From the IMG/VR virus record IMGVR_UViG_3300044513_002309, positions 1-41,775 of that record: a stretch of DNA of 41,775 nt; one strand, written 5' to 3'. Source of the stretch: a virus (taxonomy: Duplodnaviria; Caudoviricetes). This document shows positions 3,404 to 40,600 of this stretch, in pieces (position 1 is the stretch's first letter; every line of letters starts with the position of its first letter). The notes under the pieces were generated by a model. That model was given only the letters and a program-made list of their open reading frames with translations, did no database searches and was not told where the DNA came from. A program made the translations under genes and the position numbers.

Positions 3404-4314
3404 ACGGTTAGTTTATCACTTTTTTCTTTTTCCCACCATTCAATCTGCTTTTCTGCCTTGTTGATGGTGTTGATGTGTGATTGGACTAGTTCGTCCATTG
3501 TTTGGGCGTGTGTGTATCCGCCTGCGAGCACGTAGGCTACGGGCGTGTCTGCTGAGTATGTTTCGCTGAACACAACTTGGTCTCGGTATGCGAGGTCTGC
3601 GTGCGAAATGCGGGGGTAGGGGTCTGTGCCTGCATTGTACAATACGAGGTCGATCTGATCGTCCCACAATAGGTCAAATGCGGTTTGCATTTGTTCAATG
3701 TATTCGTCGTCGCTGTGTGCGCTGAGAATAAAGTGGGTGTCGTCCTCTACATAGTCGTCAAAGTAGTTCGTAGAGATGTCTACCTGCCGCACTTGCTCGT
3801 CAATGCCGAGATGTCGAAGTGTTCTGACGGTTCCTCCGCCGCAGTGTGCGTCAAAATCTAGGATAAGAATCTTCATTGACGGGTTCATTTCAAGCATGAA
3901 GTTTGCAGCAACAGCGAGGCCGTTGACTGTGCAGAATCCGCCGCCTCTGTTGTGGTCAGCGTGATGCAGACCGGAGGATAGGCTTCCAGCGATAGTCTTG
4001 TTCTTGTAAGCGTGGGATGCGGCGTTAATGACTCCTAGTGTGGAGTTGAGTGCCATTTCCCAGATACCGTAGTCCCATTTAAAACCGTTAGACTCTGCCA
4101 TGTGCCCACCTGTTTGGAGGGCTTCATAGTATTCAGGTGTGATCGCCTTGCGGATTGCTTCGTCTGCGTCTTGCAGGCTGAAGTGTCCGTTCTTGGCGGG
4201 GTCACTGATATGTTCGTGGCCGATAGCGTCTGCAATGTGCTTGCTCTTGCGAGTTGTGTCGAATGCGTGCTTGGCTCCGGTGTATTTTTCGTTCCAGTAA
4301 ATTGTGTGTTGCAT
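3400..4314 (-). CDS. histone deacetylase/AcuC-family Zn-dependent deacetylase
   Basis: GLHHA, GGFCTVN, LDFDAHCGGGT, YNAGTDP, AGGY motifs. Confidence 0.9.
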   Translation of the reverse strand: MQHTIYWNEKYTGAKHAFDTTRKSKHIADAIGHEHISDPAKNGHFSLQDADEAIRKAITPEYYEALQTGGHMAESNGFKWDYGIWEMALNSTLGVINAASHAYKNKTIAGSLSSGLHHADHNRGGGFCTVNGLAVAANFMLEMNPSMKILILDFDAHCGGGTVRTLRHLGIDEQVRQVDISTNYFDDYVEDDTHFILSAHSDDEYIEQMQTAFDLLWDDQIDLVLYNAGTDPYPRISHADLAYRDQVVFSETYSADTPVAYVLAGGYTHAQTMDELVQSHINTINKAEKQIEWWEKEKSDKLTV

Positions 4315-4324
4315 TTCCCTCCTT

Positions 4325-5008
4325 TCAGGGTGCGATTCTGTTATTGGCTACAAAATGTTTGTATGTTACTGGCATGGCTTCTTGAAAGAAGTATTCCAGA
4401 CTGTGAGCGTACTGTCTTATTTCCCACTGAGCAGTTTCGTCGCCTCGTAGATTAATGAAGTTCATTAGTGCTCGGGCGTTTGTTGTTGCGTAAAATTCGC
4501 TGTAGGTACCTACTGGTAGAACTAATCTAGCAATTTCTTTAGCCACGCCTTCTTCTAATAGTTTTTCGTATGCAGTGAAACTGCTATGGTACTGCATTTT
4601 TATACGGTCTTTGGAAAACTGTGGGTTTTCCATGGGTTCAAATGTGTATGCTCCGGGCTTACCTACCTGTGTTCGCATTTGTGCATTATCAGGAATGTAT
4701 GCTTCTGTACTTATTTCTGAGTACCGTCCAGAGTATTCGTTGTAAGACCATCCGATTCGATGACGGAACCATTCTCGTACAACGAAGATAGGTGCTTTGA
4801 TGTGAAATCGAAAAAAGTTGTGTTCAAATGGCGTGCCGTGCTTTTCTCGCATTAGGAAGCCAATTAGCCCTTTGTCTTTTTCGCTTAGTTCTTCACTTTG
4901 GATACCAAAACTTACTCGGGCGGCGTTTACTACGCTAAGGTCGTCAGCAGACACAGCATCTAGACGAATAAAGCCTTTATCTAGTACGTTTAGTTCTTTA
5001 GTTGTCAT
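4325..5008 (-). CDS. thyX: flavin-dependent thymidylate synthase
   Basis: AARVS, HGTPFEH, RHRxxxxxNExSxRY signature, ARLVLP. Confidence 0.95.
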   Translation of the reverse strand: MTTKELNVLDKGFIRLDAVSADDLSVVNAARVSFGIQSEELSEKDKGLIGFLMREKHGTPFEHNFFRFHIKAPIFVVREWFRHRIGWSYNEYSGRYSEISTEAYIPDNAQMRTQVGKPGAYTFEPMENPQFSKDRIKMQYHSSFTAYEKLLEEGVAKEIARLVLPVGTYSEFYATTNARALMNFINLRGDETAQWEIRQYAHSLEYFFQEAMPVTYKHFVANNRIAP

Positions 5009-5595
5009 CAGGCATCTACCCCGGTACCAATGTTGCGCTCAAGAATCACATGGCCGGTCTTTCCGGGGGCGGCAACGTATGTTGGCCCTTCGTACCCGCC
5101 GTGTTCAACGATGTGGTCCAGAAACTTAACAGGTAGGTGCTGAGGAAGGAATACGCCTTCGCCATTAAAGTCGGTGTCAACAAACTTTAACGTTCCGGTT
5201 AGTCGGTTGTCGTATACACGACCGAAGTCTTCAATCCAAAGAATCTCTTGACCGTCGTTCTTCAACTGTTCGGCTAGTGGTCGCACAGTTTCAAACTTCC
5301 AGTGAGGATTGCGGATGTGTGTCCCGTCATCAATCACAGGAGTGTTTCTGGAGATTCCTAGAATGTCTGAAATGTGTTCGTTAGCCTTGTTGCGCCACGT
5401 CGTTAGCCAGTACAAGTCTGCGCTGGATTCGATGGCTTGGATTAACTCTGGCATATAGTCGGGTACCCAAATGGTGTACTGTCCTGCCTGATGCGGGTCT
5501 GTTTGGCGATCAAAAGCCACTGTTCCGCTGGAATAAAGATGTCGCAAACTGTTGATTACGCCATCTACGTCTAAGAATACTGCATAGTTGTTCAT
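5008..5595 (-). CDS. HAD-superfamily protein (Swiss-army-knife RNA-repair type HAD)
   Basis: FLDVDGVIN, WLTTW, WK, LWIED motifs; SD AAAGGAG. Confidence 0.75.
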   Translation of the reverse strand: MNNYAVFLDVDGVINSLRHLYSSGTVAFDRQTDPHQAGQYTIWVPDYMPELIQAIESSADLYWLTTWRNKANEHISDILGISRNTPVIDDGTHIRNPHWKFETVRPLAEQLKNDGQEILWIEDFGRVYDNRLTGTLKFVDTDFNGEGVFLPQHLPVKFLDHIVEHGGYEGPTYVAAPGKTGHVILERNIGTGVDA

Positions 5596-5633
5596 AGTGC
5601 TCCTTTCACTAGCAGTGTTTTAAAATGATTCCC

Positions 5634-5662
5634 ATTTTAGCATAGGAATATTTATTTGTCAA
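5634..5662 (-). promoter_or_regulatory. sigma-A-like promoter for the HAD-thyX-deacetylase operon
   Basis: TTGACA-17nt-TAAAAT. Confidence 0.75.
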
Positions 5663-5667
5663 ATCGG

Positions 5668-6693
5668 TCAGTCGATTAGCCACTCTGGATGGTCTAGTGT
5701 CCATTTGACTGTGCGTTCAAATGACTCTTCTACGCTCATGGGCGGAGTCCATCCGTCGTTCCTTAGTTTATCACCGTTGAGTGAATAACGCAAATCGTGT
5801 CCGGGGCGACTAGAGTGGTAATCAACTAGTTCATAGTTGGGTTCTTTGCCCATAATTTCACTAATCATAGAAACAATTTCTAGATTATCTATTTCTTTTT
5901 CTCCAGAAACGTTATATCGTTGAATATCTGGAGTTGTGTCGCTGTTGTCATAAGGGGTGTGATCAATGTTTTCTAAGATGTGCTGAACGGCATCAGCATG
6001 GTTCCTAGCGTGTAACCATACCCTTGAACCGATAGTCCAGTCGCCTGCGTCATTTGGTTTGCTGTGGATTTCGATTTTATCACCACTCAAAATCTTCTTA
6101 ATTACCATTGGTACATACTTTTCGGGGTGTTGACGTTCACCGAAGTTATTCATGGTGTTTGTAATGTACAAAGGAACGTTGTATGTGCGCCAGTACGAGA
6201 ATGCAATTGCTTCCTGTGCGGATTTTGACGCCGAGTACGGGTTGGAGGGGCGGTGCGGCTCACCTTCTGCATGGTCGTGACCTACCGGTGCGGGACCGTA
6301 CACTTCATCTGTGGACACTTGAATAAACTTTTCTGGTTCGACTTCTCTTGCATACTCTAGCATGTTAAGTGCTAGGCTTACATTATTTTGTACAAAGTCA
6401 ACAGGTTCGGTGATGGAACGATCTACGTGTGAGTCTGAAGCCATGTTAACGATGTAGTCTACTTCACCGATTTGCCGCTTGATTTGATCGTGGAGAGGTG
6501 CCCGAAGGTCATGCCATAGTGGCGTTACTCTCTTAGGGTCGTAGGCGTCGATGTCTAGTATGCGCTCTACTCGGCCTGCAAACCGAAGTGAGTCTAAGAC
6601 AACAATGTCCCAGTCGGTGGTCTTTAACCAATGCTCTACTGTGTGTGAACCGATAAATCCTAGTCCGCCTGTAAGTAGTACCCGTTTGTCCAT
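5668..6693 (-). CDS. rmlB: dTDP-glucose 4,6-dehydratase (RmlB/RfbB-like)
   Basis: TGGLGFIG, SHVDRSI, STDEVYG, YSASK, RPGHDLRY; ATG 6693 with SD AAGGAG. Confidence 0.9.
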   Translation of the reverse strand: MDKRVLLTGGLGFIGSHTVEHWLKTTDWDIVVLDSLRFAGRVERILDIDAYDPKRVTPLWHDLRAPLHDQIKRQIGEVDYIVNMASDSHVDRSITEPVDFVQNNVSLALNMLEYAREVEPEKFIQVSTDEVYGPAPVGHDHAEGEPHRPSNPYSASKSAQEAIAFSYWRTYNVPLYITNTMNNFGERQHPEKYVPMVIKKILSGDKIEIHSKPNDAGDWTIGSRVWLHARNHADAVQHILENIDHTPYDNSDTTPDIQRYNVSGEKEIDNLEIVSMISEIMGKEPNYELVDYHSSRPGHDLRYSLNGDKLRNDGWTPPMSVEESFERTVKWTLDHPEWLID

Positions 6694-6704
6694 GTTTCTC
6701 CTTA

Positions 6705-6788
6705 AATATGAGACTGGCCTCCAGAGCATTTGTCTGAAGGCCAGTCGTCGCTCCTCTTATACCTAGGTGTTAGTGGTAGCGAAGCGAT
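6705..6788 (-). ncRNA. candidate two-hairpin sRNA or structured 5' leader of rmlB
   Basis: Promoter TTGACT(6823)-17-TAGTCT(6795); hairpin 6748-6787 with a large loop; 14-bp hairpin 6712-6746. Confidence 0.5.
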
Positions 6789-14828: not shown

Positions 14829-15803
14829 TCAAATAGATGCGTAGATTGTATCGGCAATTGTCTCTCGGATTTCTTCATTTTCATCCAAGAACGCCTTCGT
14901 GTTGGCACGGCCCTGTCCAATGTTCTCACCCTTGTAGGCGTACCACGCACCCTTTTTATCAAGGATACCCATCTCTACAGCAATGTCTACGATATCTCCG
15001 GTGCGGCTGATTCCTTCACCGTATGAAATTTCAAACTCTGCCTGACGGAAAGGCGGGGCGCATTTGTTCTTCACAACCTTAACTCGTGTCTTGTTGCCAG
15101 ACGCTTCTCCACCATCCTTTAGTGTTTCAATGCGGCGAATGTCCATTCGGACTGACGCATAGAACTTAAGTGCCTTGCCACCAGTAGTTACTTCAGGTGA
15201 ACCAAACATTACGCCAATCTTTTCACGCAACTGGTTAATCATGACGAGTGTGGTCTTGGAGTGGTTTAGATTCGCCACAATCTTTCGCATGGCTTGGGAC
15301 ATAAGACGTGCGTGAAGACCAACGTGACTATCTCCCATCTCGCCATCAATTTCTGCACGAGGCGTTAGCGCCGCAACTGAGTCCACAACCACAACGTCTA
15401 GAGCGCCCGACTCAATCAATTTGTTCGTGATTGTCAGGGCCTGCTCGCCGGTATCTGGCTGCGATACGAGAAGATCGTCAATGTTGCATCCAATTGCCTT
15501 GGCGTACACAGGGTCTAGTGCGTGCTCTGCGTCGATGAACGCACACTTACCGCCGTTCTTTTGAGCCTCTGCGATAATGTGAAGTGCAATAGTTGTCTTG
15601 CCGGAAGACTCGGGGCCGTAGATTTCTGTAACCCGTCCACGAGGTACGCCTCCAATGCCCAAAGCCAAGTCAAGGGCGATAGAGCCAGTTGAAATAGTTT
15701 CAATCTGCATAGATGCAGCATCGCCTAGGCGCATAATACTTCCAACACCAAACTGCTTTTCAATTTGACCTAGGGCATCTTCAAGAAGTTTTTCTTTATC
15801 CAT
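14829..15803 (-). CDS. recA: recombinase RecA
   Basis: [40 protein letters not shown]. Confidence 0.98.
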
Positions 15804-22244: not shown

Positions 22245-22722
22245 ACCGTTAAAACGCACTCCTTTGAAAAGGGGCGATAGTCAACTTAAGCGCACTCCTT
22301 TAAAACCTCGCTCCAAGAAGATGGAGGACATCTATGTTGAGCGCCGTGCTCTAGTTAAAGAGTTATTGGAATCCCACGACTACTGTCAGGCGTGTTTGGT
22401 GTACCACGTATTTGATGCTTTTGAAAATAGTCCCCCAAACGGTTCTCCACCTGTCTTCGGGGTAGTTAAACCTAACAAGACTAGAGATATTCATGAACTG
22501 ATTAACAGATCACAAGGTGGAAGCATAACTCAGCGAAATAATTTGCTGGCAGTATGCAGACCTTGCCATAATAGAATAACTACAAATCCAAAAGAAGCAG
22601 AAAGGCTCGGATTGCACTTAGAGAGTTGGTGCAACACCGAAGATTACTTCGTAGAAGCAGAAAGGGTCCGAAATGAGTGGGCGTCAGGAAATGTTACAAA
22701 GCCTCATTGGTTCAGCGATTAG
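22231..22722 (+). CDS. HNH endonuclease with a basic LKRTPL repeat N-terminus
   Basis: CQAC...HE...RSQGG...NLLAVCRPCH; GTG start with AAGGAGG. Confidence 0.8.
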   Translation: MKRGKPLKRTPLKRGDSQLKRTPLKPRSKKMEDIYVERRALVKELLESHDYCQACLVYHVFDAFENSPPNGSPPVFGVVKPNKTRDIHELINRSQGGSITQRNNLLAVCRPCHNRITTNPKEAERLGLHLESWCNTEDYFVEAERVRNEWASGNVTKPHWFSD

Positions 22723-23572
22723 CGAGCATCCAGATTTACTGTCTGAAATTAATTCTTTAGCAGATGGTTTTCCCGATAGTAGTTTACCTCTACTAGACAG
22801 GGAGAACGTTGATTACAGTCAGTTGACTGATTTGCAACGACAGTGGAGAGATGACGGGGTTGTAATTTTAAAAAACTTCATCCCAGACAACATGATTGAA
22901 GCCTACCGTCAAGATTGGATTCAGCATAACAGAATCAATCATGATAGACCTCAAGGCTATCCGGGAGAGTGCGCTTACTTTCAAGTACCTAGTTTGATGA
23001 ACCTATCAACTTATAAGCCGCTACATGATGTGTTGGAGCAGTTAATTGGTGATCAGATGGGTGTCCACTTAAACTTAACGGGATGGAAGTCTACGCAACG
23101 TAATTGGCACCAAGACGGATACTTAAACCCTGATTCTAACAGGGACCATTATCTCGCCGTGTGGGTAGCCCTGAACGATATCCATGAAGATTCAGGCCCA
23201 TTTGAGTACGTTAGAAAGACGCACATGTTGCCCACTATTACTCAAGAGGCTACTAAAATGCGCATCCCCGTATCATTACGAGAAGACCCCATGTGGCCAA
23301 AGTATTCGGAAGAGTTTCTTACTCCCATGTTTGAAGATATTTTGAATCGTGGTAATCTACAGAAAGAGCAGTTTATTGCCAGTAAGGGGGATGTTCTGAT
23401 TTGGCACGCACGGTTAATGCATCGTGGCACCATTCCAAACAATCCTGATCTTTGGCGTGAAACCGCAATTCTACATTACTCCGGGGTTAATAATCGGCCA
23501 GATATGCCAGAAGCCGTTCAGCACGGTGATGGTGGGTGGTACTTCCCTATTAACCAAAATATCCCACTCTAA
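22673..23572 (+). CDS. PhyH-family Fe(II)/2OG dioxygenase
   Basis: DGVVILKN, WHQD, VWVAL, SGPF, GDVLIWHARLMHRG. Confidence 0.88.
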   Translation: MSGRQEMLQSLIGSAISEHPDLLSEINSLADGFPDSSLPLLDRENVDYSQLTDLQRQWRDDGVVILKNFIPDNMIEAYRQDWIQHNRINHDRPQGYPGECAYFQVPSLMNLSTYKPLHDVLEQLIGDQMGVHLNLTGWKSTQRNWHQDGYLNPDSNRDHYLAVWVALNDIHEDSGPFEYVRKTHMLPTITQEATKMRIPVSLREDPMWPKYSEEFLTPMFEDILNRGNLQKEQFIASKGDVLIWHARLMHRGTIPNNPDLWRETAILHYSGVNNRPDMPEAVQHGDGGWYFPINQNIPL

Positions 23573-27773: not shown

Positions 27774-28701
27774 GTCGTGGCGTTCGCTAGTAACCGGAGT
27801 TTCAGGCTCGTCTATCGAAGCGTTACTTTCTGCGGCTAAAGCCGACTACTCTGTTGTGACAAACGACGTTTATGTGCATGATCGGTTTTTAGACTCTTTT
27901 GTGAAAGTACCTAATAGGTTTGTGACAGGTAGAGAAGTTGATGAGCGCCTTGAAAATTGGGAAGTTGTAAAAGACCGTTACGAGGTTGAGCAGAATAGCC
28001 GCATTCTTCAGCGAGCAACTGCTCTGATTTCTAAGTATGGTGACTCTGCGGTTTTAACTGGTTGTGGTATTTTGGATGAAGGGCGAAAGTTTTTTGCAGT
28101 AGTTAATACTGGTTCTTTAAGCCTACCCACTTCAAGCGGGGATGTTGATATTATTGACTCGTATGTTGTTGTTCTGACCTCCCACGATGGTAGTATGCCC
28201 ATCTGTTATTACAACTTAGATAGTAGAAGATTAAATAACACCACTTACCGATTTACAGAAAGTGAAACTTCTGAGTTCAGCATCCGTAAACGACACACAC
28301 CTAGTGAAGTTGATCTAAACAAAGAGGCTTCTGAAGTAAAGGCGATGAGAGCACAGTGGTCCGAGCATATGAGCGACAGTATTGGAAAGTTGTTCGTTCC
28401 TATGTCTCCGGGTTCTGTAGATAAAACGTTGGAACAGTTCTGGCCTACTGCGTTTGCGGCCACAGAGAAGAAACGTGAACATGCAGAAAATGTCCAAGAA
28501 GCCATTAAAAAATTGTATAGAAAGTCGTATAATGTTGGGGCTTTTGGTGAATGCAGATGGGCACTACTTAATGCGGTTAATGAGTACATTGACTTTCATA
28601 GAAACATCCCAAGCAGCGAAGCAGCACAGCATTCATTAGAAGTTGACAATTATAGTCACCGATTAAAGTTGAGTGTGTTTAAATGGTTGAGTACGTTTTA
28701 G
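27763..28701 (+). CDS. DUF932-family protein
   Basis: V..RY...QN, G.L..GRKF, TSHDGS, RHT, WALLNAV.EY.D. Confidence 0.7.
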   Translation: MIAESWRSLVTGVSGSSIEALLSAAKADYSVVTNDVYVHDRFLDSFVKVPNRFVTGREVDERLENWEVVKDRYEVEQNSRILQRATALISKYGDSAVLTGCGILDEGRKFFAVVNTGSLSLPTSSGDVDIIDSYVVVLTSHDGSMPICYYNLDSRRLNNTTYRFTESETSEFSIRKRHTPSEVDLNKEASEVKAMRAQWSEHMSDSIGKLFVPMSPGSVDKTLEQFWPTAFAATEKKREHAENVQEAIKKLYRKSYNVGAFGECRWALLNAVNEYIDFHRNIPSSEAAQHSLEVDNYSHRLKLSVFKWLSTF

Positions 28702-29237
28702 ATGATCTAGTTATAATTAGAGACTTTACCGAGCATTGCGATGCACTGTTAGAAATGGTCCAAAACCCCCTTGAAGGCGAAATAGTGGAAATGCCTGACA
28801 GGTGTTATAACTTTTTCACCAAGCATGTAGTTGACGGTGGAAGTTCAGATTCGTTTGAAGACATCACTATATTAAGATACTCAGAGCAGATTAGGGATGC
28901 TTTGTTAGAAGTTTTTTCTTTCAATGGTGTGATGAATAATAATTTACCGGCAGTTGTGTACCCTGAAGGGTGCGGCATGGGTCTACACGATGATATGTAT
29001 CATAATTCCGATGACCCTGAGCATCGTGAAAAGGTACATGTGTACAGTTCAGTTCATTATTTGAATGATGATTACGAAGGTGGAGAATTAGTTTTCCCTG
29101 ACTTGGATTTGACAATAAATCCTGAAAAGAATATGCTATTACTATTCGGATGCCATCACAAACACCGTGGCAATCCAGCAACGGGCGGTATAAAGATTTC
29201 GTCCACAAAGTTTTGGAGGAACGCAGATGCAGTTTAG
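28683..29237 (+). CDS. 2OG-Fe(II) oxygenase (prolyl-hydroxylase-like)
   Basis: HDD, YLNDDYEGGELVFP, distal His. Confidence 0.85.
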   Translation: MVEYVLDDLVIIRDFTEHCDALLEMVQNPLEGEIVEMPDRCYNFFTKHVVDGGSSDSFEDITILRYSEQIRDALLEVFSFNGVMNNNLPAVVYPEGCGMGLHDDMYHNSDDPEHREKVHVYSSVHYLNDDYEGGELVFPDLDLTINPEKNMLLLFGCHHKHRGNPATGGIKISSTKFWRNADAV

Positions 29238-29808
29238 TTCTAGTGAACAAGAAAATTTCGTTATCGAAATGACACAGATGAAGCACGGTGGTCACTATGT
29301 CGAACTTGGTGCTTTTCATTCCCACGAAGGTAGCAATACTCGTGTTTTAGAACAAGAGTTTGCGTGGCGTGGCGTGTCGTTTGAAATTGATGAGAAGCGG
29401 CGAGAGCAGTTTACTGACAATCGTTCAAATCCCTGTTTTGGAGATGCGCTAGATTTTGACTACACCGAGTTTTTTAAATGGGGTCAATGGCCTAAGCAAA
29501 TTGATTATTTACAAGTAGACATTGATAATGGCTATGATCATGCGATGCGCCCGGAGGGAAGTGCGTATACCTCATTATTGGGTCTTATCTCCCTCCCGTT
29601 AAATTTGTACCGGTTCTCGGTCATAACGTTTGAGCACGACGTTAACATGTACTTTAGGAACGAGTCTATCCGTGATGCCCAAAGAGAAATTTTAGATGCA
29701 TTAGGATACACTTTAGTCGTGCGAACCATTCATGAAGATTGGTGGGTTGACCCAACTGCGATTGAACCTGATGTCTTTAGACCGCATTTACGTTGGGAAG
29801 TTCTTTAA
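29227..29808 (+). CDS. FkbM-like methyltransferase
   Basis: YVELGA..GSNT..LE...WRG..E, IDYLQVDID, FSVITFEHD, EDWWV. Confidence 0.75.
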   Translation: MQFSSSEQENFVIEMTQMKHGGHYVELGAFHSHEGSNTRVLEQEFAWRGVSFEIDEKRREQFTDNRSNPCFGDALDFDYTEFFKWGQWPKQIDYLQVDIDNGYDHAMRPEGSAYTSLLGLISLPLNLYRFSVITFEHDVNMYFRNESIRDAQREILDALGYTLVVRTIHEDWWVDPTAIEPDVFRPHLRWEVL

Positions 29809-30077
29809 TCTACTTCAATAAAGATACATTCTCCGGGGCACTCTTCGGCTGATTCAATTACATCTTCCAACATATTTTCTGGCACATCAGCCATACCCTC
29901 GGACATCCGGTAAACAGGTCCGTCTGCATCACCGCTAGGCCCATTTAGGCTAGGCCACGTTGCTTCCTTAACGTATGCCAATCCATCGTCGTGCATCTCA
30001 AATACACTTGGACATATTTCTGCACATAGCCCATCACCCGTACATAGGTCTTGATCAATCCAAACTTTCATTGTCAC
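29805..30077 (-). CDS. single-cluster ferredoxin
   Basis: KVWIDQDLCTGDGLCAEICP...CPGECI (CxxDxxC..CP). Confidence 0.9.
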   Translation of the reverse strand: MTMKVWIDQDLCTGDGLCAEICPSVFEMHDDGLAYVKEATWPSLNGPSGDADGPVYRMSEGMADVPENMLEDVIESAEECPGECIFIEVD

Positions 30078-30080: not shown

Positions 30081-31397
30081 TCATATTATTATTTCAATTT
30101 TACGGCGAGTGCCCATTCCTAATCCAGCACATGCATTAAATGCGTGGGTTGCGGCGTCCACTTGGTCGTCGTGCACTCTGGCTTCGGGGAACGCCGACAT
30201 TTCATCAATGAAATCCGTGTTCCACGACGCTCTAATAAGTTTTACGTTTCCGTTTGCAACTGCTGCTGCAAAAGGTTTGGCTCTAGTTACTTTATCTCCT
30301 GTGGCCCGTTGACCAGTGAAGGAATACCCCGGAAGTACGTACCTAGCATACTGGTCGATGAGGTTTTTACCGGCAGACCCCGGTTCTTGTTCCATTTGAA
30401 TAGATATTTCAGGACCGTCTTCCGCAGCGGTTTCTTTAACAAACCTTTCAACTTTTTCACCCTTTGCCCGTATGCGGCGTACATCCATAATGTAAAAAAT
30501 ACCGTTGTCGAATGCTCCTAAGCAGCCAACAGTCCAGTCAGGGTCGGGATTAGAGTTTGTGGGTTCTGTGCCAGCCAAGTCCCAAAATCGAAGCATCTTC
30601 GTATCTTTACTTAGTTCAGGTACTTCGCTTGGCTCAATGATTTCAAAGTTGTTTCTGTTAAACATTGACCCAAGTGTTGTTGCCCACCAGTCGCCAAATT
30701 CAAGACGTTTTCTTTCGATTGGGTCTAGTTCTGCAAGCATGGCTCGGTACGATACTGGATCAATGCCGGGGTTGTCTGTTAGCATTGATGGAATAAATAT
30801 CCTACCGTGGTCTTTTCCTTCGACTAAAAATCTTTGGCGCACCCAGTTGGGTGCAGGGTTTGTTGCACATCTCATTCTGAGAGGGACTGTAGATAGTGGT
30901 CCGGTTGCTGGACGGCGAAGACGAGAGAACATATATCTGTAGTCTGATTCTCTAATCTCGGTGACCTCATCCATTCCAATGAACTGAAACTCTGAACCTT
31001 TGTAACGAAGATAGTCGTTTACATTATTTAGGTAGCCGAATGTAATTCTTGCTCCTGATGGGAATGTAGCCGTGTATTGATTAGCATTCCAATGTACGTC
31101 ATCAAACTGCATGATCCATTCTCTAAAGCGGTCCATGAGAGCGCCGGGAAGGGCAAGGTCAGCGTATGTCCGACGAAAAAGAATCGCTGAGTAGTTAGGT
31201 ACGTCCACGTACTGCAATGCCGCCATAATGAGTGCAGATGACTTACCTCCACCAGCGGCTCCACCAAACATAACTTCTTGGCCTTCTGAACGAAGAAAAA
31301 CTTTCTGTGTTAGGGATGGTTCCTCAACCCAATAGTCTGACCTTTTCGGCTCTAAGTATTCTTTGATTTTTTGCCAGTCGGTTGTTTCTGTGGACAT
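30081..31397 (-). CDS. terL: terminase large subunit
   Basis: GGAAGGGKS, IGMDE, ATNP, WDLA, EQEPG, HDDQVDA; ATG 31397 with AGGAG. Confidence 0.93.
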   Translation of the reverse strand: MSTETTDWQKIKEYLEPKRSDYWVEEPSLTQKVFLRSEGQEVMFGGAAGGGKSSALIMAALQYVDVPNYSAILFRRTYADLALPGALMDRFREWIMQFDDVHWNANQYTATFPSGARITFGYLNNVNDYLRYKGSEFQFIGMDEVTEIRESDYRYMFSRLRRPATGPLSTVPLRMRCATNPAPNWVRQRFLVEGKDHGRIFIPSMLTDNPGIDPVSYRAMLAELDPIERKRLEFGDWWATTLGSMFNRNNFEIIEPSEVPELSKDTKMLRFWDLAGTEPTNSNPDPDWTVGCLGAFDNGIFYIMDVRRIRAKGEKVERFVKETAAEDGPEISIQMEQEPGSAGKNLIDQYARYVLPGYSFTGQRATGDKVTRAKPFAAAVANGNVKLIRASWNTDFIDEMSAFPEARVHDDQVDAATHAFNACAGLGMGTRRKIEIII

Positions 31398-31403
31398 ATC
31401 TGC

Positions 31404-31432
31404 TTGTCTCCTAGACAAATAAAAGGTACAGT
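31404..31432 (+). promoter_or_regulatory. leaderless promoter of the portal operon
   Basis: TTGTCT-17nt-TACAGT-6nt-ATG(31439). Confidence 0.6.
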
Positions 31433-31438: not shown

Positions 31439-31597
31439 ATGAGGAATCTTCTAAATCGTTCTGCCGCCGCTCATACACTGATGGGGGCGGGTATAATATT
31501 AGTAGGGCTTGGTATTAGTATACTGAGTTTGGGGTGGGGTCTGGCAAGTGCTGGCCTTGCTTGTGGAATTTACGGTTATTTGCTAGGGGCTGAATAA
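31439..31597 (+). CDS. small 2-TM membrane protein (52 aa), absent from the ORF track
   Basis: MRNLLNRSAAAHTLMGAGIILVGLGISILSLGWGLASAGLACGIYGYLLGAE*; TAATG overlap with portal. Confidence 0.75.
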   Translation: MRNLLNRSAAAHTLMGAGIILVGLGISILSLGWGLASAGLACGIYGYLLGAE

Positions 31598-33063
31598 TGG
31601 CATGGAACTCAGGATCGAATAAATCTTTACAGGATATTTTAAGCGGACAACAGAAAGCCGCTAACATTTCTGTTGGCGCTCCCGTATCATACAGCCCATC
31701 ATTGACTGGCAACGCACGTGGCTACCATGATAATTGGGACATCACCAAAGCATATAGAGAAGGTGTTGCCAAAGTAACTTGGGTTTTTCGGTGCATTGAT
31801 GTAATTTCGTCTAATCAAGCACGCTTGCCTATGATTTTCCGCAAGGATAACAATCCTTTTGGCGAGATAGTAGCAGATCATAATATGTTGAAGATTTTCA
31901 ACAACACTGCTAATATTGGTGAAAATGCGTTTGCGTTCAGGTATCGTTTGTCTAGTCAGTTGTTGATGAGTAGCCGTGGCGCTTTTGTAGAAATTGTTCG
32001 TGGGCGTGGTGGTAATCCGGTTGCTTTGCATCTTTTGCCTCCTCAGAATACTTCCCCGATCCCTGACGACACAAAGTTTGTCAAAGGGTTTGAAGTTAAG
32101 ATTTCTGATCAGGTAAAACGAACAATCAAGCCTGAGAATGTTATTTGGATTCGCAGACCGCATCCTCTTGATCCTTATCTTTCTATGACTCCTATGGAAG
32201 CCGCTGGGGTTGCAATTGAGTTAGAAAACTTGGCTAAGATTTACAATCGCAACTTCCTAATCAACGACGGTCGCCCCGGCGGTCTCCTTGTTCTGCGAAG
32301 TGAGATTGCGGATGAAGACAAGGAAGAACTCCGTTCACGGTTCCGTGGAAACATTGGCCGTGTAGGGTCTGTCGGAGTCATTTCTTCTGATGATGGTGCA
32401 GACTTTGTAGATACTGCGGCTAGCCCTCGTGATGCTGCTTACATTCAGATGCGTACAGTCACGAAAGAAGAAATCCTTGCTGCGTTTGGTGTCCCTGAAT
32501 CTATTATTGGTAACTCCTCCAACCGAACTTTCTCTAACGCTATGGAAGAAGGCAAGGTGTTCTGGATGGAAACCATGTCTCCTCACCTTGATCTGATTGC
32601 TCGTTCTTTCGACAAGATTGATGACTCATACTTTATTGATTTTGACGTTGCAAATGTACCTATCTTGATTCTTTCTAAACAAGAGCGTGAGCGTCATTAT
32701 TTGACTGAGTTCCAGACTGGTCTCATCAGTACCAATGAGTACCGGGAAGCCTCTGGACGCAAGAAGGTAGAATCTGATCTTGCTGATTCACTTTTGTCTA
32801 ACCCTAATCAGACGCCTATCGCTAATACAGAGAAGCCCATGAATGAGGATACGGATGTAGAGGGCGGTGTCCCCCTAGATGTACAGGCGCAAAATGCCCA
32901 GCAGGCGCAGGTGACTGAGTTCAGCCCAGAAGAGGCCGCTTTCGTTGAGGCCGGTACGGTTGAAGGTACGGAAGCCATTGAGGTGCCCGCATCAGAAGTT
33001 CCAAGTGAACTTGAAGGAGATGAACCGGAGGGTAGGAAGAGCGACCCTTTTCAGCAAACCTGA
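31597..33063 (+). CDS. HK97-family portal protein
   Basis: VFRCIDVI..ARLP, LLPP, PGGLL, I..AFGVP..IG, NEYRE. Confidence 0.92.
   Translation: MAWNSGSNKSLQDILSGQQKAANISVGAPVSYSPSLTGNARGYHDNWDITKAYREGVAKVTWVFRCIDVISSNQARLPMIFRKDNNPFGEIVADHNMLKIFNNTANIGENAFAFRYRLSSQLLMSSRGAFVEIVRGRGGNPVALHLLPPQNTSPIPDDTKFVKGFEVKISDQVKRTIKPENVIWIRRPHPLDPYLSMTPMEAAGVAIELENLAKIYNRNFLINDGRPGGLLVLRSEIADEDKEELRSRFRGNIGRVGSVGVISSDDGADFVDTAASPRDAAYIQMRTVTKEEILAAFGVPESIIGNSSNRTFSNAMEEGKVFWMETMSPHLDLIARSFDKIDDSYFIDFDVANVPILILSKQERERHYLTEFQTGLISTNEYREASGRKKVESDLADSLLSNPNQTPIANTEKPMNEDTDVEGGVPLDVQAQNAQQAQVTEFSPEEAAFVEAGTVEGTEAIEVPASEVPSELEGDEPEGRKSDPFQQT
33045..33051 (+). other. putative -1 ribosomal frameshift heptamer C CCT TTT
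   Basis: X XXY YYZ in the portal frame, three sense codons before its stop; the -1 frame is open from 33036 into MuF. Confidence 0.65.
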
Positions 33064-33854
33064 AATTTGGTGACTTATCTAAATACTCTTCTTGGGAAGA
33101 AAAAGCATTATACCGTGTTGATTCTTTAGAAAATCAGGTGTCTAAGCAATTAGACGACATTATTGACTCTCAGGAGAGCACTGTTTTAGGAACTTTATCA
33201 AGTCCAGCAGTAGCGGCGTTACTCGGTGTCGGAGCAGATGCTAACTTTGCCTCAATTGTCCCTATGAGTGAGTTGTCAGTGTCCACGTTGCCTCTGCTTG
33301 AGTCGATGCGAGGCATTTATGAGAAAGCAATTACTGACAATATTGATGAGGGTTATGGTGCTACGGTTTCAGAGCAGCGGGCACAGGCTGCTGTTTCTGA
33401 GCATTTAGCAACTGTAAATAAGTTCAATTCTACTACGCAAGATCAGGTTGCAGAGGCTTTAGCCGCCGCATCTTTAGCGACTTCTGAAGATGGAGATGAT
33501 CTTGATGCTGCGTTAAAGATTGCTTTAGCCTACACACTAATTAAAGCGGTTTTCAATAAATTACGAAGTACTAGAAAACGGTTGATTGTTGATTCAGCAG
33601 TTTTGGGTCCCTATAATCAAGGTCTTTTTGATTCCGCTGAGTCTCGTCCTGCTGATTCGGTACAGATAAACAAAGAGTGGGTTTCTTTAAAAGACGAGCA
33701 GGTCCGTATCGCTCACAGGCAGTTACATGGCGATAAAATTCCTGTTGGGCAACCATTTTTCGTTAGTGGAGTTCCCATTCGGTTCCCTAAAGACCCGTTG
33801 GCCCCTCCGGGGTTGACCATAAATTGTAGGTGTGTTCTAAAGTTCACAAGATAA
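33051..33854 (+). CDS. MuF/SPP1 gp7-like head morphogenesis domain (probably a frameshift extension of portal; nominal GTG at 33138)
   Basis: KEW...D..VR.AH...HG...PF...FP.DP...INCRC; no SD before the GTG. Confidence 0.85.
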   Translation, partial: SANLKFGDLSKYSSWEEKALYRVDSLENQVSKQLDDIIDSQESTVLGTLSSPAVAALLGVGADANFASIVPMSELSVSTLPLLESMRGIYEKAITDNIDEGYGATVSEQRAQAAVSEHLATVNKFNSTTQDQVAEALAAASLATSEDGDDLDAALKIALAYTLIKAVFNKLRSTRKRLIVDSAVLGPYNQGLFDSAESRPADSVQINKEWVSLKDEQVRIAHRQLHGDKIPVGQPFFVSGVPIRFPKDPLAPPGLTINCRCVLKFTR

Positions 33855-33952
33855 ATATATAAACATAGGTGCATTTTATTTATATAAACCCTAATCTATC
33901 CAGATTGCGTAGGGTGTAACATATGAGTGTTGTACCGTTCTGAAGGAGAGTC

Positions 33953-35569
33953 ATGACTACTTTAGTTGAATACTCGGATGTCGCTGAAGGCACCGATCCA
34001 GCATTTGATTTCAAGGCAATTTCAGGCCAAATTGGCATTGATAAAGCACAGGGCATTGTAGAAGCCTTTGTCTCCGGTATAGGTAACCGAGACTCTGTAG
34101 GTGATGTTGTCGTTTCAGGAGCATTTAATGGCTCACTCAAGCGTCGTAAGCCACGGGTTGTTTGGGGACACGACTGGAACCAGCCTATTGGTAAAGTTTT
34201 AGAGATTTATGAAGTACCTAAGAGCGATCCTCGTCTTCCTGAAAAGATGAAGAAGGCTGGAATTGGTGGACTTTTCGCTAAGGTTCAGTTTAACTTAAAC
34301 ACTGAGCGTGGTCGTGAGGCATTTGCAAACGTGGCTTTCTACGGCATGGAGCAAGAATGGTCGATTGGTTATAAGACAATCACCGCAGACTTTGACACAG
34401 GCCGTCAAGCAAATATGCTGAAGGAAGTAGAACTTTATGAAATTTCTCCTGTTCTGCACGGCGCTAACCAACTCACTGGAACCATCTCAGTGAAGGACGA
34501 TAATGAAGGCACTTCTGAGAAGGGTGGAATGTACAACATGGACGACGATAAGGACGCTCCTTCAAATCGTGCAGACGCCGTTTCTTCCATGATGGGTCGT
34601 ATGCTTTCCCAAGCCCTCAAAAAGCCTGTACAAATTTTAGAAATTAACGGAAATTCCGTTGTGTTCCAGACCGGTGAAGACATGGTTTGGATGGCTACAT
34701 TTACTCGTGAAGGAGAAAGAATAATGGTTGGAAAGCCTACTCGTGTTAAGCCCACCACGACCTACGCCCCCGTGGGCGATGAGGCCCCTCCGTCAATGAT
34801 GGTAAAAGACCCAGATGAGAAGGATGCTGAAGAGCCTGAGGGCGTTCGGGATGCAGACGACGAGCAAGGATCATGGGCAACTCCAGACATTGCGCTGGCT
34901 TGGTCGAAAACGTTTGGCTGCTCAGGTTACCACTCACATGGCGGTGGCTTCCTTCCGTGCGAAACTCACGAAGAGTATCTTGAGGCTCTAGAGAAGTTTG
35001 ATGGTAATGCAAATATCAACTCCCATAATAACTACTTGGCAGGCGTTGAAGTTGAAGAGTCAAAAGATGACTCATGCGGATGTGAGTATGAAAAGGGTGA
35101 GTGTTCATGCGACACCGAAGAAAAGGGACATGGATACATGCGGAGTGAAAAGCCTGATTATCTAAAAGACCCTATGGCCCTTCTGCTTATGGCTTACAAT
35201 GAAATGTTAAAAATTCGTGGTGCCGGTGAACTTCGTGAAGCCACACTTGGTCTAATTAACGAAGTTGAGAAGTTCCTAACCACTGCACCGATGTCTCGTC
35301 CTGCCGAGCAAGGCGAAAAGGCCACATCAGGCTTTGTTGTCCACGTTAAGTGTTCTGAACTAGAAGCATTTAGTGTCAGCAAAGCAGTTGCTGATGTTCC
35401 AGTATTTGCGTTTAAATCTGATACTGGAGTGGACCTTCACTTCTCAACAGGTGTTGAGCATGAGGAATTGTTAGGAAAGGTTGCTGGTGCGCTGGCTGCT
35501 CTTAATTTCGATCCTCAAATTACTGTATCCAAGCCCGACCACCTTGACACTGAAGACGGTGTTGAGTAA
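33953..35569 (+). CDS. HK97-type prohead protease with a long C-terminal extension (DUF3721-like motif)
   Basis: D.VGDVV..GAF, WGHD..PIG, WSIGY, LYEISPV..GAN; SD AAGGAG. Confidence 0.9.
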   Translation: MTTLVEYSDVAEGTDPAFDFKAISGQIGIDKAQGIVEAFVSGIGNRDSVGDVVVSGAFNGSLKRRKPRVVWGHDWNQPIGKVLEIYEVPKSDPRLPEKMKKAGIGGLFAKVQFNLNTERGREAFANVAFYGMEQEWSIGYKTITADFDTGRQANMLKEVELYEISPVLHGANQLTGTISVKDDNEGTSEKGGMYNMDDDKDAPSNRADAVSSMMGRMLSQALKKPVQILEINGNSVVFQTGEDMVWMATFTREGERIMVGKPTRVKPTTTYAPVGDEAPPSMMVKDPDEKDAEEPEGVRDADDEQGSWATPDIALAWSKTFGCSGYHSHGGGFLPCETHEEYLEALEKFDGNANINSHNNYLAGVEVEESKDDSCGCEYEKGECSCDTEEKGHGYMRSEKPDYLKDPMALLLMAYNEMLKIRGAGELREATLGLINEVEKFLTTAPMSRPAEQGEKATSGFVVHVKCSELEAFSVSKAVADVPVFAFKSDTGVDLHFSTGVEHEELLGKVAGALAALNFDPQITVSKPDHLDTEDGVE

Positions 35570-35596: not shown

Positions 35597-37426
35597 ATGA
35601 GTGAAAACATGAATGACGATCTTCAGAAGTTTGAGGATATTGAGGCGCTTCTTTCCGTTGAGGAGAAGGGTGCGCATGAAGACGAGAAGGGCGCTCCTTC
35701 TGTGTTCATGACCGACATCCGTTTCAAGGAGGCTGTGGAAGCAGGCGACTTGTTAGACGAAGAGGCTTTTGCTGCTCTTGATCCCGATGATCAGAAGGGC
35801 TACGAAATGATCAATGTCGTCAACGAGGAAACTAAAGAGCCTATGGGCTGGATGTTCCGTTTCAAGTCAGATGATGAAGAGACTGAAGATACTGAAGGCG
35901 AAGAGACTGAAGATGCTGAAGGCGAAGAGACTGTAGAAGAAAAGTCTGCTGATCCTGAGGATGAAGAGATGCCTGAAGACGCAGAAGACCCTGAAGAGTC
36001 TGTTGACTTGGGAGAAAAAGTAGCGTCAATCATGATGCAGATGGTTGGAGAAGAAGAAAAGATGCCTTCAGTTTTCCTAACTGATGCTCGCTTTAAGGAA
36101 ATGGAAGAGGACGAAGACCTTATTTCTGAAGAGAAGTATGCTGATCTTGATACCGACGCCAAGGATTCTTACGAAGAAGTTGATGTTTACGAAGAAGGCA
36201 CAGGCAAGGGTTACGGGAAGCGCTATCGCCGCCGTAGTCCCCTTGAAGTGAACGCAATGCGTAAGGGCGAGCATATGGAAGACGAAGAAAAGTCTGAAGA
36301 TGCGGAAGATGCTGAGGAAAAAGCAGAAAACGGTGGTGACATGACTGACATGTTTGATACCGCAGAAGAGGCACTTGAGCGTGCGGCTGCTTTAGGTTGC
36401 GAGGGCACTCATGGTGCTGGAGGCAAGTTCATGCCTTGTGCTACCCACGACGAATGGCAGAAACTCACTGCTGAAAAGCCTGAAGGTGAAGAAAAGCCTG
36501 AAGGTGAAGAGAAGTCTGAAGAGTTCCTATGCGGTTTCCAGCGTAAGTCTGTAGATCAGCCATGTGATTTCTGCGGTGGAGGTTGCGCTCCTGAAGATGG
36601 GCTTCCCGGTCTTGCTGAAATTGAAGGCATGGTTAAAGATGCCCATGCGGGCGAGATTATGTCTTCCGGTTATTCAGCAAATGACGACATGTTCGTTGTC
36701 GATGTAAAGCGTGAAGATGGTTCATGTATTGAAGTGTTCGTTTCTGGTGATGGTGACGAACTCGGATGGCTCCGAATTGACGAAACCTCTCTTGAAGGCA
36801 AGTCCGCTGAAGAGATTACAATCGTGTCGAAGGCTGATGCAGAATCAACTGCTCTTGATTCCTTCGCTTCTCTTGCTGACGGCAAGAAGGGCGAAGTTAT
36901 GAGTGTCATGGTTGATATCTTCGGTGATGAAGATGTGTACGTTGTTGAAGTTGACTCTGAAGAGAAGAGTTTTGATTTCTACGTATCAGTCGAAGGGAAA
37001 GTTCTCGGATATGACGAGTACGACCTTCTTGACGAATTTGCTTATGACATCAGTGAAGAGGATGAGATTAAGGCCCTTGAAGCCGAACTTGAAATTAAGC
37101 GTATGTATTCACGTGAACAGCGTGAGTCGATGGCAGAGTCCGGTGAAGCAATGGAAGATGGTTCTTTCCCAATTGCAGATAAGGCTGATCTAGAGAACGC
37201 TATCAAGGCATGGGGACGTGCAGGCGACAAAGAAGCCGCTAAGGCTCATATCATTAAGCGAGCCAAGGAACTTGGTGCAGAAGATATGATTCCAGAAAAC
37301 TGGAATGATGCCCCTGAGCAAACGGCTGATGAGGCCGAAGAGAAGACTGCCGAGGTTGAAGATGATTCTGCAATCCTTGAACAGTTGAACGAGTTCCGTG
37401 CACTCATGGAGGATGGTCTTTCCTGA
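35597..37426 (+). CDS. acidic multidomain head/scaffold-like protein (duplicated domain, DUF3721-like, Cys cluster, 2 PepSY-like, DUF6582-like)
   Basis: PSVF.TD.RFKE x2; LGCEGTH..GGKFMPC..H; two PepSY-like segments; DGSFPI...L.NAI...GRA...AHI.KRA..LG...IP.NW. Confidence 0.8.
   Translation: MSENMNDDLQKFEDIEALLSVEEKGAHEDEKGAPSVFMTDIRFKEAVEAGDLLDEEAFAALDPDDQKGYEMINVVNEETKEPMGWMFRFKSDDEETEDTEGEETEDAEGEETVEEKSADPEDEEMPEDAEDPEESVDLGEKVASIMMQMVGEEEKMPSVFLTDARFKEMEEDEDLISEEKYADLDTDAKDSYEEVDVYEEGTGKGYGKRYRRRSPLEVNAMRKGEHMEDEEKSEDAEDAEEKAENGGDMTDMFDTAEEALERAAALGCEGTHGAGGKFMPCATHDEWQKLTAEKPEGEEKPEGEEKSEEFLCGFQRKSVDQPCDFCGGGCAPEDGLPGLAEIEGMVKDAHAGEIMSSGYSANDDMFVVDVKREDGSCIEVFVSGDGDELGWLRIDETSLEGKSAEEITIVSKADAESTALDSFASLADGKKGEVMSVMVDIFGDEDVYVVEVDSEEKSFDFYVSVEGKVLGYDEYDLLDEFAYDISEEDEIKALEAELEIKRMYSREQRESMAESGEAMEDGSFPIADKADLENAIKAWGRAGDKEAAKAHIIKRAKELGAEDMIPENWNDAPEQTADEAEEKTAEVEDDSAILEQLNEFRALMEDGLS
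35876..35933 (+). repeat. 24-bp in-frame tandem repeat (EETED[T/A]EG, ~2.4 copies)
   Basis: GAAGAGACTGAAGATRCTGAAGGC. Confidence 0.85.
36473..36508 (+). repeat. 18-bp in-frame tandem repeat (EKPEGE x2)
   Basis: GAAAAGCCTGAAGGTGAA x2. Confidence 0.85.
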
Positions 37427-37443: not shown

Positions 37444-37623
37444 ATGAGACCTGCTGAAGTCGGAAAGCGAATCACCCTTGCCAACGAAGCATTATTTAAC
37501 CTAGGTTCTAGAACGTTTCTTGGCTCTGCTTGGAGCCAAGAGCCTGTAGAATACATAGATAGGGACGGTGTTACTTACGAGTTCCAACCGCTAGAAGAGT
37601 TTGGGGATTTAGATGCTGACTGA
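37444..37623 (+). CDS. hypothetical protein (59 aa), absent from the ORF track
   Basis: MRPAEVGKRITLANEALFNLGSRTFLG...DAD*; GGAGG upstream. Confidence 0.65.
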   Translation: MRPAEVGKRITLANEALFNLGSRTFLGSAWSQEPVEYIDRDGVTYEFQPLEEFGDLDAD

Positions 37624-40600
37624 AATCAAAAGACCAGAAGTCGGCCCTAACGCAGACGCTCTAACAAGCCTCACACGAGGCCGTGGCCCCCGTCGTGGTA
37701 ATCTTGAAGAGTTGCTAAAGTATTGGCGACCTATCATGAAGAAGCCGGGAGGCTTTAGACGCTGTGTAGTCATTTTGATGGATAAGCCGCAGTTCGGCGG
37801 TAAGCCTCAGCGTATTTGCGCTTGGCTTCACCACGAGATTACTGGTAAGTGGCCGAACGAGGGTAAAGGTAAGCGTGGCCGTGAAGGTAAACGCCGCAGC
37901 CGCAGTGTTCGTCGTGTCAGAAGTGCTGCTCGCAGGGCCAAGTCAGACATGCTGACTCCACAAACTTTTGATATTTCTCCGTTACGTGTTGCGATTCGTG
38001 AGTCTAGAGAATTTGGTGGTATTCTAGTCCAGCCTATTGCGGGTAGACAGAATGTTGTTGAACTTAAAGCGGCGCTGTTTTCTACTTACTCGGATCGTGT
38101 TGTTGTTTCTTCTGAGATTAGCGAGAAGCGTGTTGGTGTTGTCGGCTCTAGTACTGCGGTTGGTCAGGCGGCACAGGCTGCTGGAAGTATTATTCTTCCG
38201 GGCGATATTTCAGATTTTCGCAGTCCTATCCGTTCACAGATTTATGAGACTTTGACTCCGGGTGGAGGCCGTGGTCTTCCTAGCGCACGCCGCTTGGTGC
38301 GGGGTGCCCGCCGTGGTGGTCAAGGTGCCCGAAACAAGTTCCGCTGCCCTCCGGGTTTCCAAAAAGGCGGCACGTTTACTAACGCTCAGTTCAGCACTTG
38401 CGGTGCACAGATTTTAGGTATTCCGGGTAAAGGTGTAGGTTCGCCCTCTTCGGGTGCCCAGCGTGCTTTGGCTGCTCTGGCTAGGGATGCTTCGCTCGTG
38501 CGTGAAATTGGTGATCTGCGCAGTAACCGAAACCCTTATGACATTATTCGTGCGGCACAGATTCCTGTTGCCCCCAAGAAGGGCAGCGCCACCCGACGCC
38601 AGACTTCAATCAATAATGTTTTGTCTCGTGCGGAAGAGTCAGATTTTTCAATTCGTGCGGTTCGACGTGATGGTGTTATTCTGGAGCCAGTAGTTTCCCT
38701 TCAGGCTCTCGGTAAGTTAGATGAGTTTGATGACTTGGCTGATGGCACTCTGATTGATACATATGTTAACGGTCAAATCGGTCGGGATATTGTTCCAGCG
38801 TTTTCCACAGGCTTACGAGATGTTTATGTAGATATTCCGGGTTCTGGCTCTGTCCGAATGACCCGTGTTGGTGGCGAGTTGTCGGCATCAGAGATTGATA
38901 ACTTGCGGAGAGTTTTCCCAACTTCTATTCGTCGTGCTGCTGATTTGCCTGATCCTAGTGCGGGTATTAGAGATTTTGCTGACAGGTCTAATGGCAGGTT
39001 CACTGTTGAGTTTGGTGAATTAAAGAATAATCAGTTCGACGTTTCTAATTCAAAGAATAAACTTATCCGTGTTCAGACTGCTGGTGGTAAAACGCTCACT
39101 GTTCCGCAGTGGGTTTACGAAACTTTCTTGTCTCGTTCTGCTCCACGGCGTGCAAAAGATGCCCCTGTTTACGAAATTATTTCTGAAAAGAAATCAGATA
39201 ATCCTTTCTTAATTTCAACCAAGTCTCAGATTTCTGCTTTGCCTGACATCAATACGAAGCAGGATGAAGTTGATGCTCGTGCCAGCATGTTTACGCAGAT
39301 GCTGGAAGACACAGATTTTAATGTAAAAGCACGTGCTAGTCGTGGTGCCCGAAGGGCTGCTAGGGGTGGTAGGACTCGTGCAATTTTCGATTCTAATTTG
39401 AACCGCTACCGTTGTCCTCCGGGAACACGCTACGGTGGCCGCATTTCAGACAAGTTTGGTCGTAACTGTGGTTATTCGCTTCCACGACAGATTGTAAACG
39501 AACTTGTTGATTTTGGCGTGCGTATCGAAGAGCGCTTAGATAATCGCAAGCGGCGTCGTCGTGGTGTTGATACTCAGCCGGGAGATAGGCGAGGAATGGG
39601 TCCTGATGTCCGTGCGGATTTGGATGATATTTTCAAGCGGCTTGACAATATTGAAAAAGAACTGGGTATCGCTTTCGATAAGGTAGAAGATCGTCGTCCG
39701 GGTCGTGTTGGTGCTACGATTGGTGAGCGGCGGGCACGTCAGGACTTGACTGATCGTGAGAAGGATTTGTTAGAGGGTAACGAGTTGGCTGAGGCGATTG
39801 AGGACCTTGGTCGCATTATCGACAATCCTGATTTTGACAATGCTAGCGATGAAGAGTTGCGTGAGGCATTTAATAGGGTTCAGAAAGCAGCCAACTTGGA
39901 GGCAGGTCGTTTGACCGAGACTCCTCCTCGTTCTCCTGAGCAGCGGAGTATGTCTCAGCGCATTTTGGATGCGATTGCTCGTGTGCTTAGGCGTTTGGCT
40001 GATCGTCTTGATGGTGGCCGTGGTCGTGACCGTGATCGTGATCGTGGTCGTGATCGTGGTGGTAGAGGTGCTGGTGCCCCTGATGCCCCTAATGCTCGTC
40101 GTGCCCCTCAGCCTCGTCGTCGTCGTGATCGTGATGCTGATAAGCCGTCTCTTGAAAATATTCTTGATGAGTTGCAGGATAGAGCAAGAAACTACGATGC
40201 ACAATCTGGCGGCATGACTGGTAACTTCATTGACGATTTGAATGATAGCGAACTTGATAACTTTATCCAAGGTTTGGAAGACAACCTTGAGGACTTGGGT
40301 GATGAAGGTCGTGACATGCTTGGTCGTTTGCGGGGCGAGCGTGATAGGCGTCGTCGGGATGACAACGGCGTTTTGGCTATGCTGAATGACATGCAAGACC
40401 GGCAACGGGCCTTTGATAAGATTCCGGGCGGCAAGACCGAGATGTGGGTTGATCAACTTAATGATGGCGACTTAGATAGATATATTGACGCTTTGCAGCG
40501 TGCAGACGCTGATTTTATTGGCAAAGAGGGCGCAAAGATGTTGCGTAACTTGATTGCTGAACGTGATCGTCGTAACCGTCCGCCTAAGAGCGGTGATGAT

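Follow-up and report, generated by a model that had tools for sequence, protein, structure and literature searches.

A conserved signal at the portal-MuF junction of a tailed phage very likely directs a -1 ribosomal frameshift

The window, which is the whole stretch of DNA analysed here, is a single contig of 41,775 bases from a tailed phage, in which a terminase gene on the minus strand is followed by the genes for portal, MuF and an HK97-family prohead protease and by an acidic 609-aa ORF. The portal gene (31597..33063, +) encodes a 488-aa HK97-type portal that ends in an acidic C-terminal tail (PF04860, E 1.4e-54; TIGR01537 above cut-off). The MuF region (33051..33854, +) lies in the -1 frame relative to the portal and provides 267 aa after the predicted shift; it is SPP1 gp7-like and belongs to PF04233 and phrog_2468. 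The next gene encodes the protease (33953..35569, +; PF04586, phrog_80; TIGR01543 just below cut-off), which also has a DUF3721-like stretch, and the acidic ORF after it (35597-37426, +) contains DUF3721 and has the look of a scaffold-type protein bearing numerous protease sites. The gene for the terminase large subunit (30081-31418, -) opposes the portal gene, a strand arrangement unusual for head modules; a minus-strand ORF of similar size also lies upstream of the portal in one relative, L285. A TATATAAA-like motif is repeated at 33853-33892, before the protease gene, and also occurs 3' of the portal stop in L029, L030 and L083, being kept with or without MuF. This putative element may be a late promoter or may serve as a binding site. 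The stretch at 37444-39770, about 2.3 kb, contains no ORF of at least 80 codons and no tRNA called by ARAGORN.

Identical pieces of this DNA were present in metagenome runs from an estuary. The closest cultured portals, among the matches listed, are those of actinophages (39-44% identity), and prophage-like relatives near 40% identity are found in genomes of Actinomycetota, so that the host is likely to be actinobacterial. When 15 other starts in the window were scored with an anti-Shine-Dalgarno (anti-SD) motif, 10 of them reached -5 kcal/mol or stronger, which indicates that the host reads SD signals. Host-like genes are located at 2429-6729, 14829-15803, 22673-23572 and 28683-30077, comprising two PhyH-type dioxygenases, a histone-deacetylase-family protein, a GDP-mannose dehydratase-like enzyme, a 2OG-Fe(II) oxygenase, a ferredoxin-like ORF called by eye, and RecA, for which the top single-copy PDB matches are presumably mycobacterial.

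The 3' end of the portal gene reads GAC CCT TTT CAG CAA ACC TGA. The first-pass annotation had proposed that a programmed -1 frameshift at this site produces a portal-MuF fusion, and the slippery heptamer on which the proposal was based, C CCT TTT (33045..33051, +; Pro-Phe in the portal frame), is indeed present in the X XXY YYZ phase of the portal. The portal stop codon TGA (33061..33063, +) lies 9 nt 3' of the heptamer, and this distance is variable across homologues, from 3 to 54 nt. The -1 frame is bounded by a TAG stop (33033..33035, +) located 12 nt 5' of the heptamer, and, as had been claimed, it stays open from there for 272 codons to 33854 and contains the PF04233 MuF domain. An internal SD-like GGAGG (33027..33031, +; core GAGG 33028-33031) precedes the heptamer with the proposed spacing of 13 nt. 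The predicted fusion would have 485 + 267 = 752 residues. No intrinsic terminator was called at the portal-MuF junction.

To place this junction among its relatives, we examined 400 sequences, consisting of 399 loci and the window; the loci were the best 80 matches per scan, and close kin are thus over-represented. We excluded 285 duplicates, 8 loci in which the portal ran off the end, 2 lacking a portal, 2 with insufficient downstream DNA and 1 partial sequence, which left 102 distinct portal ends. MuF is in the -1 frame in 48 of these, including the window, whereas 27 are in-frame fusions and 11 are long in-frame extensions; MuF is in the +1 frame in 5, 10 have no MuF, and one is odd (L315, a Kitasatospora contig in which MuF, at ~3500-4700, overlaps the portal ORF extensively and out of frame, which may reflect a mutation, a sequencing error or recoding).

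Considering that in-frame fusions are frequent in the more distant relatives (27/102 portal ends), one base might be missing from the assembly and the true gene might be an ordinary in-frame fusion. When eight DNA runs were compared, X4 was the sole run with a full-identity piece across the junction: a contig of 380 nt at depth 15, spanning 33009-33388, matched the window with 0 differences and 0 gaps. Two X4 pieces cross the junction, the identical one and one from a diverged relative, and runs X5, X7, X8 and X9 gave no coverage there. The extra base that would turn the locus into a plain fusion, for which the first-pass annotation had suggested a check of reads, is therefore missing from the X4 contig, and the contig argues against an indel. 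As X4 may itself be the sample from which the window came, the homologues are the stronger evidence: the same -1 offset, together with a portal stop, recurs in 47 further distinct junctions that come from other assemblies. An assembly error is thus barely credible, and one uninterrupted portal-MuF ORF in the window is ruled out by the TGA at 33061, the -1 frame of MuF and the X4 contig.

The MuF region scored 40 bits against PF04233, with a gathering cut-off of 29.6, and its gene adjoins the portal, as in the MuF1 / SPP1 gp7 family. A further match was to the C-terminal portion of phrog_2662, a fused family. Among 7,998 candidates for longer MuF homologues, the one match was an 820-aa Streptomyces portal, and no structural relatives were found among solved structures by profile or Foldseek. 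In an AlphaFold model built with 24 sequences (mean pLDDT 84), residues 20-53 form one helix. A gene caller would pick the GTG at 33138..33140 (+) as the MuF start. This codon had been described as lacking an SD, which was borne out by a duplex energy of -0.1 kcal/mol, compared with -7.7 and -9.2 kcal/mol at the portal and protease starts, respectively. It corresponds to MuF residue 35, within the predicted helix, and is probably not a true start. On its 5' side, at the start of the helix, lies a W-E-x-K motif (33093..33107, +), a candidate prohead-protease site.

We surveyed the MuF start in the 43 of the 48 sequences whose MuF frame is complete. Trp20 is retained in 40/43 and Lys23 in 42/43, and an ATG, GTG or TTG 5' of this conserved Lys was found in 1/43, so the SD-led MuF start that would speak for independent translation is lacking in the homologues. 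No such codon occurs within the first 60 codons in 17/43, and an SD-led start within 60 codons was found in 3/43, each elsewhere. Across 31 sequences, residues 20-34 differ by codon position as 0.42/0.34/0.58 in the -1 frame; being most variable at third positions, they vary like coding sequence, yet they lie 5' of any conserved start. MuF could still be a separate protein with its own weak or non-standard start, perhaps coupled to the portal stop, the overlap being incidental. A CTG overlapping the portal stop is present in the window, and in the +1-frame subclade (5/102) an ATG is located 11-14 nt 5' of the portal stop, which suggests that free MuF is workable. However, the CTG is not conserved among the junctions listed, a start codon occupies the GTG column in only 4/43, start codons 5' of Lys23 are nearly absent, and an independent start would leave the invariant heptamer and GAGG without explanation. 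We therefore consider separate translation of MuF in the -1 group very improbable.

Wherever MuF is in the -1 frame (48/48 junctions) the heptamer is kept, as the frameshift proposal had anticipated for homologues, in the forms CCCTTTT (39), CCCTTTA (7) and CCCTTTC (2). As the variation is confined to the seventh base (T, A or C), it is compatible with tandem slippage. The codon 5' of CCT is of seven kinds, each with a final C. The GAGG at -17..-14, the T at -12 and the G at -6 are invariant in 48/48, and a -1-frame stop lies at the same offset in every junction (TGA in 29, TAG in 16, TAA in 3). Of the 12,845 codons examined in the portal core, 17 carry an in-phase heptamer, whereas 48/48 distinct -1 junctions have one at the same place, so that the heptamer at the junction is more than chance. 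The 48 junctions are of one origin, and their shared phase therefore counts as a single observation.

As a control for conservation, we used the portal core of the 44/48 sequences with full portals, from which 35 lineages below 90% nucleotide identity (median 0.69) were taken. At the junction, five codons have an invariant third position (48/48), versus 0/361 in the core of these lineages, and for the 19 lineages below 80% identity the core value is 1/362. The most distant member, L088, with 63% portal identity, keeps the GAGG and its spacing to the heptamer although the amino acids between them differ. Together with the fixed synonymous positions, this points to a constraint on the RNA. Since a Lys-Ser just 5' of the signal is also conserved (EKS, RKS or KKS in 43/48), some of the constraint on this side may concern the protein. 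An SD model accounts for neither the invariant G at -6 nor the fixed -1 stop.

The conserved 24-nt element might instead bind a protein, cause a pause or encode an amino-acid motif (a protease site, for example), with the fusion being noise. The retained Lys-Ser in the portal frame fits such a role, as do the G at -6 and the T at -12, which go beyond what the heptamer and GAGG require. Against this, synonymous positions are fixed while a Phe/Leu change is tolerated, L088 retains both elements with different amino acids, and the element is gone wherever MuF exits the -1 frame: the heptamer and the SD-like motif are both absent from 15/15 MuF-less or +1 relatives. Such another function seems highly unlikely to us, even more so than separate translation.

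A programmed frameshift would be expected to have stimulators, and we analysed the flanking RNA in the 35 lineages. The anti-SD duplex, calculated with the same anti-SD motif, peaks at offsets -22 to -18 with means of -8.8 to -9.8 kcal/mol, and averages about -9.5 kcal/mol for the SD-like GGAGG; the weakest lineage gives -5.0 to -6.1 kcal/mol, and the strongest 1% of portal-core windows reach -7.4 kcal/mol. According to the accessible part of PMC5009743, an internal SD stimulates -1 shifts from 9-14 nt upstream, and the 13-nt spacing of the GAGG in 48/48 junctions falls within this range. No conserved 3' hairpin was detected in a search of hairpins only: the mean z values in three window sizes were -0.18, -0.15 and -0.09, with z < -2 in 1, 0 and 2 of the 35 lineages.

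In 35/35 lineages the SD itself is predicted to base-pair with either the heptamer or the spacer, at -6.3 to -15 kcal/mol, so that another RNA-level role is possible. This pairing may be a by-product of G-rich and C/U-rich motifs, or it may shield the SD against initiating ribosomes; no compensatory changes were found in the stem in the 35 lineages. The same hairpin would be relevant if the polymerase, rather than the ribosome, slipped: a base added in the C/T tract, aided by a nascent hairpin between GGAGG and the pyrimidines, would give the same fusion with an identical junction peptide, and the accessible text of PMC5009743 describes a stem-loop-mediated case at T5C5 in Roseiflexus IS630. 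As stated in the same text, however, context-free transcriptional slippage requires a T run of ~9. Here the run is 4 long, and just 3 in 9/48 junctions from several lineages. The stem also lacks compensatory support, and its G(-13):C(0) pair is broken in 3/35 lineages while C(0) is kept. Transcriptional slippage is therefore improbable, though slightly less so than separate translation of MuF.

Taken all together, we regard with considerable confidence a conserved programmed -1 ribosomal frameshift as the best explanation of the portal-MuF junction, judging from comparative sequence data. It is very likely that a fraction of ribosomes slip back one base at C CCU UUU and thereby make portal-MuF.

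The relatives that lack this arrangement give some indication of its history. All six cultured actinophage relatives checked have both Pfam domains in one chain, and the 11 long in-frame extensions include Cantare, in which the MuF domain is present by Pfam. A tree was built from 48 selected portal cores (midpoint root; the tool warned of long branches). Its 19 frameshift, 5 MuF-less and 2 +1 rows group together on one branch with support of 94/94, just below the tool's threshold, and of 99/96 without L088. The 22 rows outside this branch are all in-frame fusions or long in-frame extensions. In the simplest reading of this tree, the frameshift would have been gained within a fused lineage. The +1-frame subclade (L052, L053, L054, L124 and L374) has a weak SD (-3.9) at its ATG, and its MuF may have a separate start or be reached by a +1 shift. 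In the MuF-less subclade (L029-L042, L082, L083, L085, L111 and L142) the frameshift signal is wholly gone and an AT-rich spacer directly follows the portal. In L288 and L292, the portal is in frame with the helical part of MuF and ends before the C-terminal Cys-x-Cys region. We also considered a reverse switch in the fused relatives, where 3/27 sequences have a TTTCCCT that is followed two codons later by a -1 stop. In close kin the Phe-Pro is retained but TTTCCCT has been lost by synonymous change, so a reverse switch is unsupported among fused relatives; no slippery site is shared at the junction in the 19 linkers listed.

Compared with known systems, the portal-MuF site is similar to E. 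coli dnaX and the IS3-family elements such as IS911 in its X XXY YYZ heptamer, its internal SD 9-14 nt 5' and an N-terminus common to two products, as far as the accessible text of PMC5009743 describes them. It differs in its heptamer, which is C CCU UUN rather than A AAA AAG, and in the stimulator, as dnaX and IS911 are described in the same text as using a 3' stem-loop, which was not found here. The portal-MuF site is accordingly not classed with the full dnaX/IS911-type cassette, the 3' stem-loop having failed to appear in the 35 lineages. The products differ as well, since the shift at this junction would lengthen a virion protein, whereas the dnaX shift truncates a polymerase subunit and the IS shift makes a transposase.

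Phage frameshifts are documented for tail chaperone, capsid and tail genes in the accessible portions of the literature (among PMC7911831, PMC6316719, PMC3556154, PMC10299305, PMC4276943, PMC5009743, PMC2628397 and PMC3483164). The proposed portal-MuF shift resembles those of T3/T7 gp10, Lactobacillus A2, Listeria A118/A500/PSA and SPP1 gp17.1* in that slippage close to the 3' end of a structural gene yields a fixed share of C-terminally extended subunits. In the accessible descriptions, however, these cases concern major capsid or tail proteins with mostly external Ig-like extensions, whereas here a 12-subunit portal would receive a whole MuF. The site is also similar to the lambda tail assembly chaperone G/GT, where a phage -1 or -2 shift sets a short:long ratio, but G/GT involves other genes at another position and is absent from the mature virion. 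As the site lies between portal and MuF and not in a chaperone gene before the tape measure, it was not assigned to the G/GT class. A similar C3-U-run is found at the CCCUUUUUUU shift site of phage 9g, according to the accessible part of PMC4276943.

In-frame portal-MuF fusions are described for Microbacterium EA3/EA5/EA8 and EB phages in the accessible part of PMC7302621, and further fused actinophage relatives are Gilgamesh gp46, Cantare gp7 and the Gordonia phages Gray, DalanDe, GMA6 and FlyingTortilla. The actinophage fusions have the same two domains in the same order, with portal cores ~39-44% identical to that of the window. Every portal subunit is encoded with MuF in these phages, whereas here a stop codon intervenes and the shift alone would join the two. 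The MuF gene is directly 3' of the portal gene, like gp7 after gp6 in SPP1. As given in the accessible text of PMC5576092 and PMC6316719, SPP1 gp7 binds the portal, enters the head through it, has a copy number of one or two and promotes infection; the available text of PMC5576092 adds that roughly one in three tailed phages encode MuF and that MuF can carry toxins. While SPP1 gp7 is a separate portal-binding protein, here MuF would be joined covalently to the portal through recoding. We found no portal-MuF frameshift in the literature searched, mostly open-access main texts, and supplementary survey tables may bear on its novelty; neither 'portal' nor 'MuF' is mentioned in the accessible text of PMC5009743, nor 'frameshift' in that of PMC5576092. 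In mechanism, the proposed shift resembles the SD-stimulated dnaX/IS shifts without 3' structure, and its target, the portal, is unlike those of the capsid and tail extensions.

The proposed mechanism would begin with the anti-SD of the elongating ribosome pairing with the GGAGG and straining the ribosome. The tRNA-Pro would then shift from CCU to CCC, a move in which it gains pairing by our reasoning from wobble rules, and the tRNA-Phe (or Leu) would shift to UUU. The products would be the plain 488-residue portal and the 752-residue portal-MuF fusion. Since there is no 3' hairpin, the shift rate is probably modest, so that a 12-subunit portal ring would bring few MuF domains into the prohead. 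We infer that the fusion is a minority product that sets the stoichiometry of MuF.

In a more speculative step, the prohead protease from the adjacent gene would then free MuF by cutting at the W-E-x-K. HK97-type proteases cut after Lys; a paper on their specificity was not found in the literature searched. The motif [EQ]-x-K-[AT]-L was present in 14/14 streptomycete-type fused linkers examined, ~110-125 residues into an almost lysine-free linker. In the acidic ORF at 35597, [ED]-x-K-[SAG] was seen 10 times against 2.9 expected, and 0/2,000 shuffles were as high. No such enrichment was found in the portal, MuF or protease, so that for MuF the idea of release is an argument from position, and release of MuF by the prohead protease is put forward here as a hypothesis. 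A Lys-Ser-like motif near portal residue 10 (31597-31640), present in most relatives with an intact N-terminus, is another candidate protease site, and the protease of a different phage cleaves its own portal, as reported in the accessible part of PMC10052503.

These elements can be combined into a Gag-Pol-like loading scheme, which we offer tentatively and which we would sooner expect to fail in some part than to hold as a whole. In this scheme, an SD-only -1 shift would fix the MuF-bearing share of the 12 portal subunits and the protease would release MuF at the conserved E-x-K. The junction states would always be fused, frameshift-fused, separate or lost, and the frameshift would have been gained within the fused lineage to cut the MuF dose.

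The junction affects annotation, as gene callers begin MuF at a probably false internal codon, and the site would represent a compact natural -1 shift with an SD and no 3' structure detected. It is an open question how minor head proteins are held to one or two copies in each virion. If the proposed frameshift is true, the shift rate would set the MuF load, which would be a testable answer to this low copy number.
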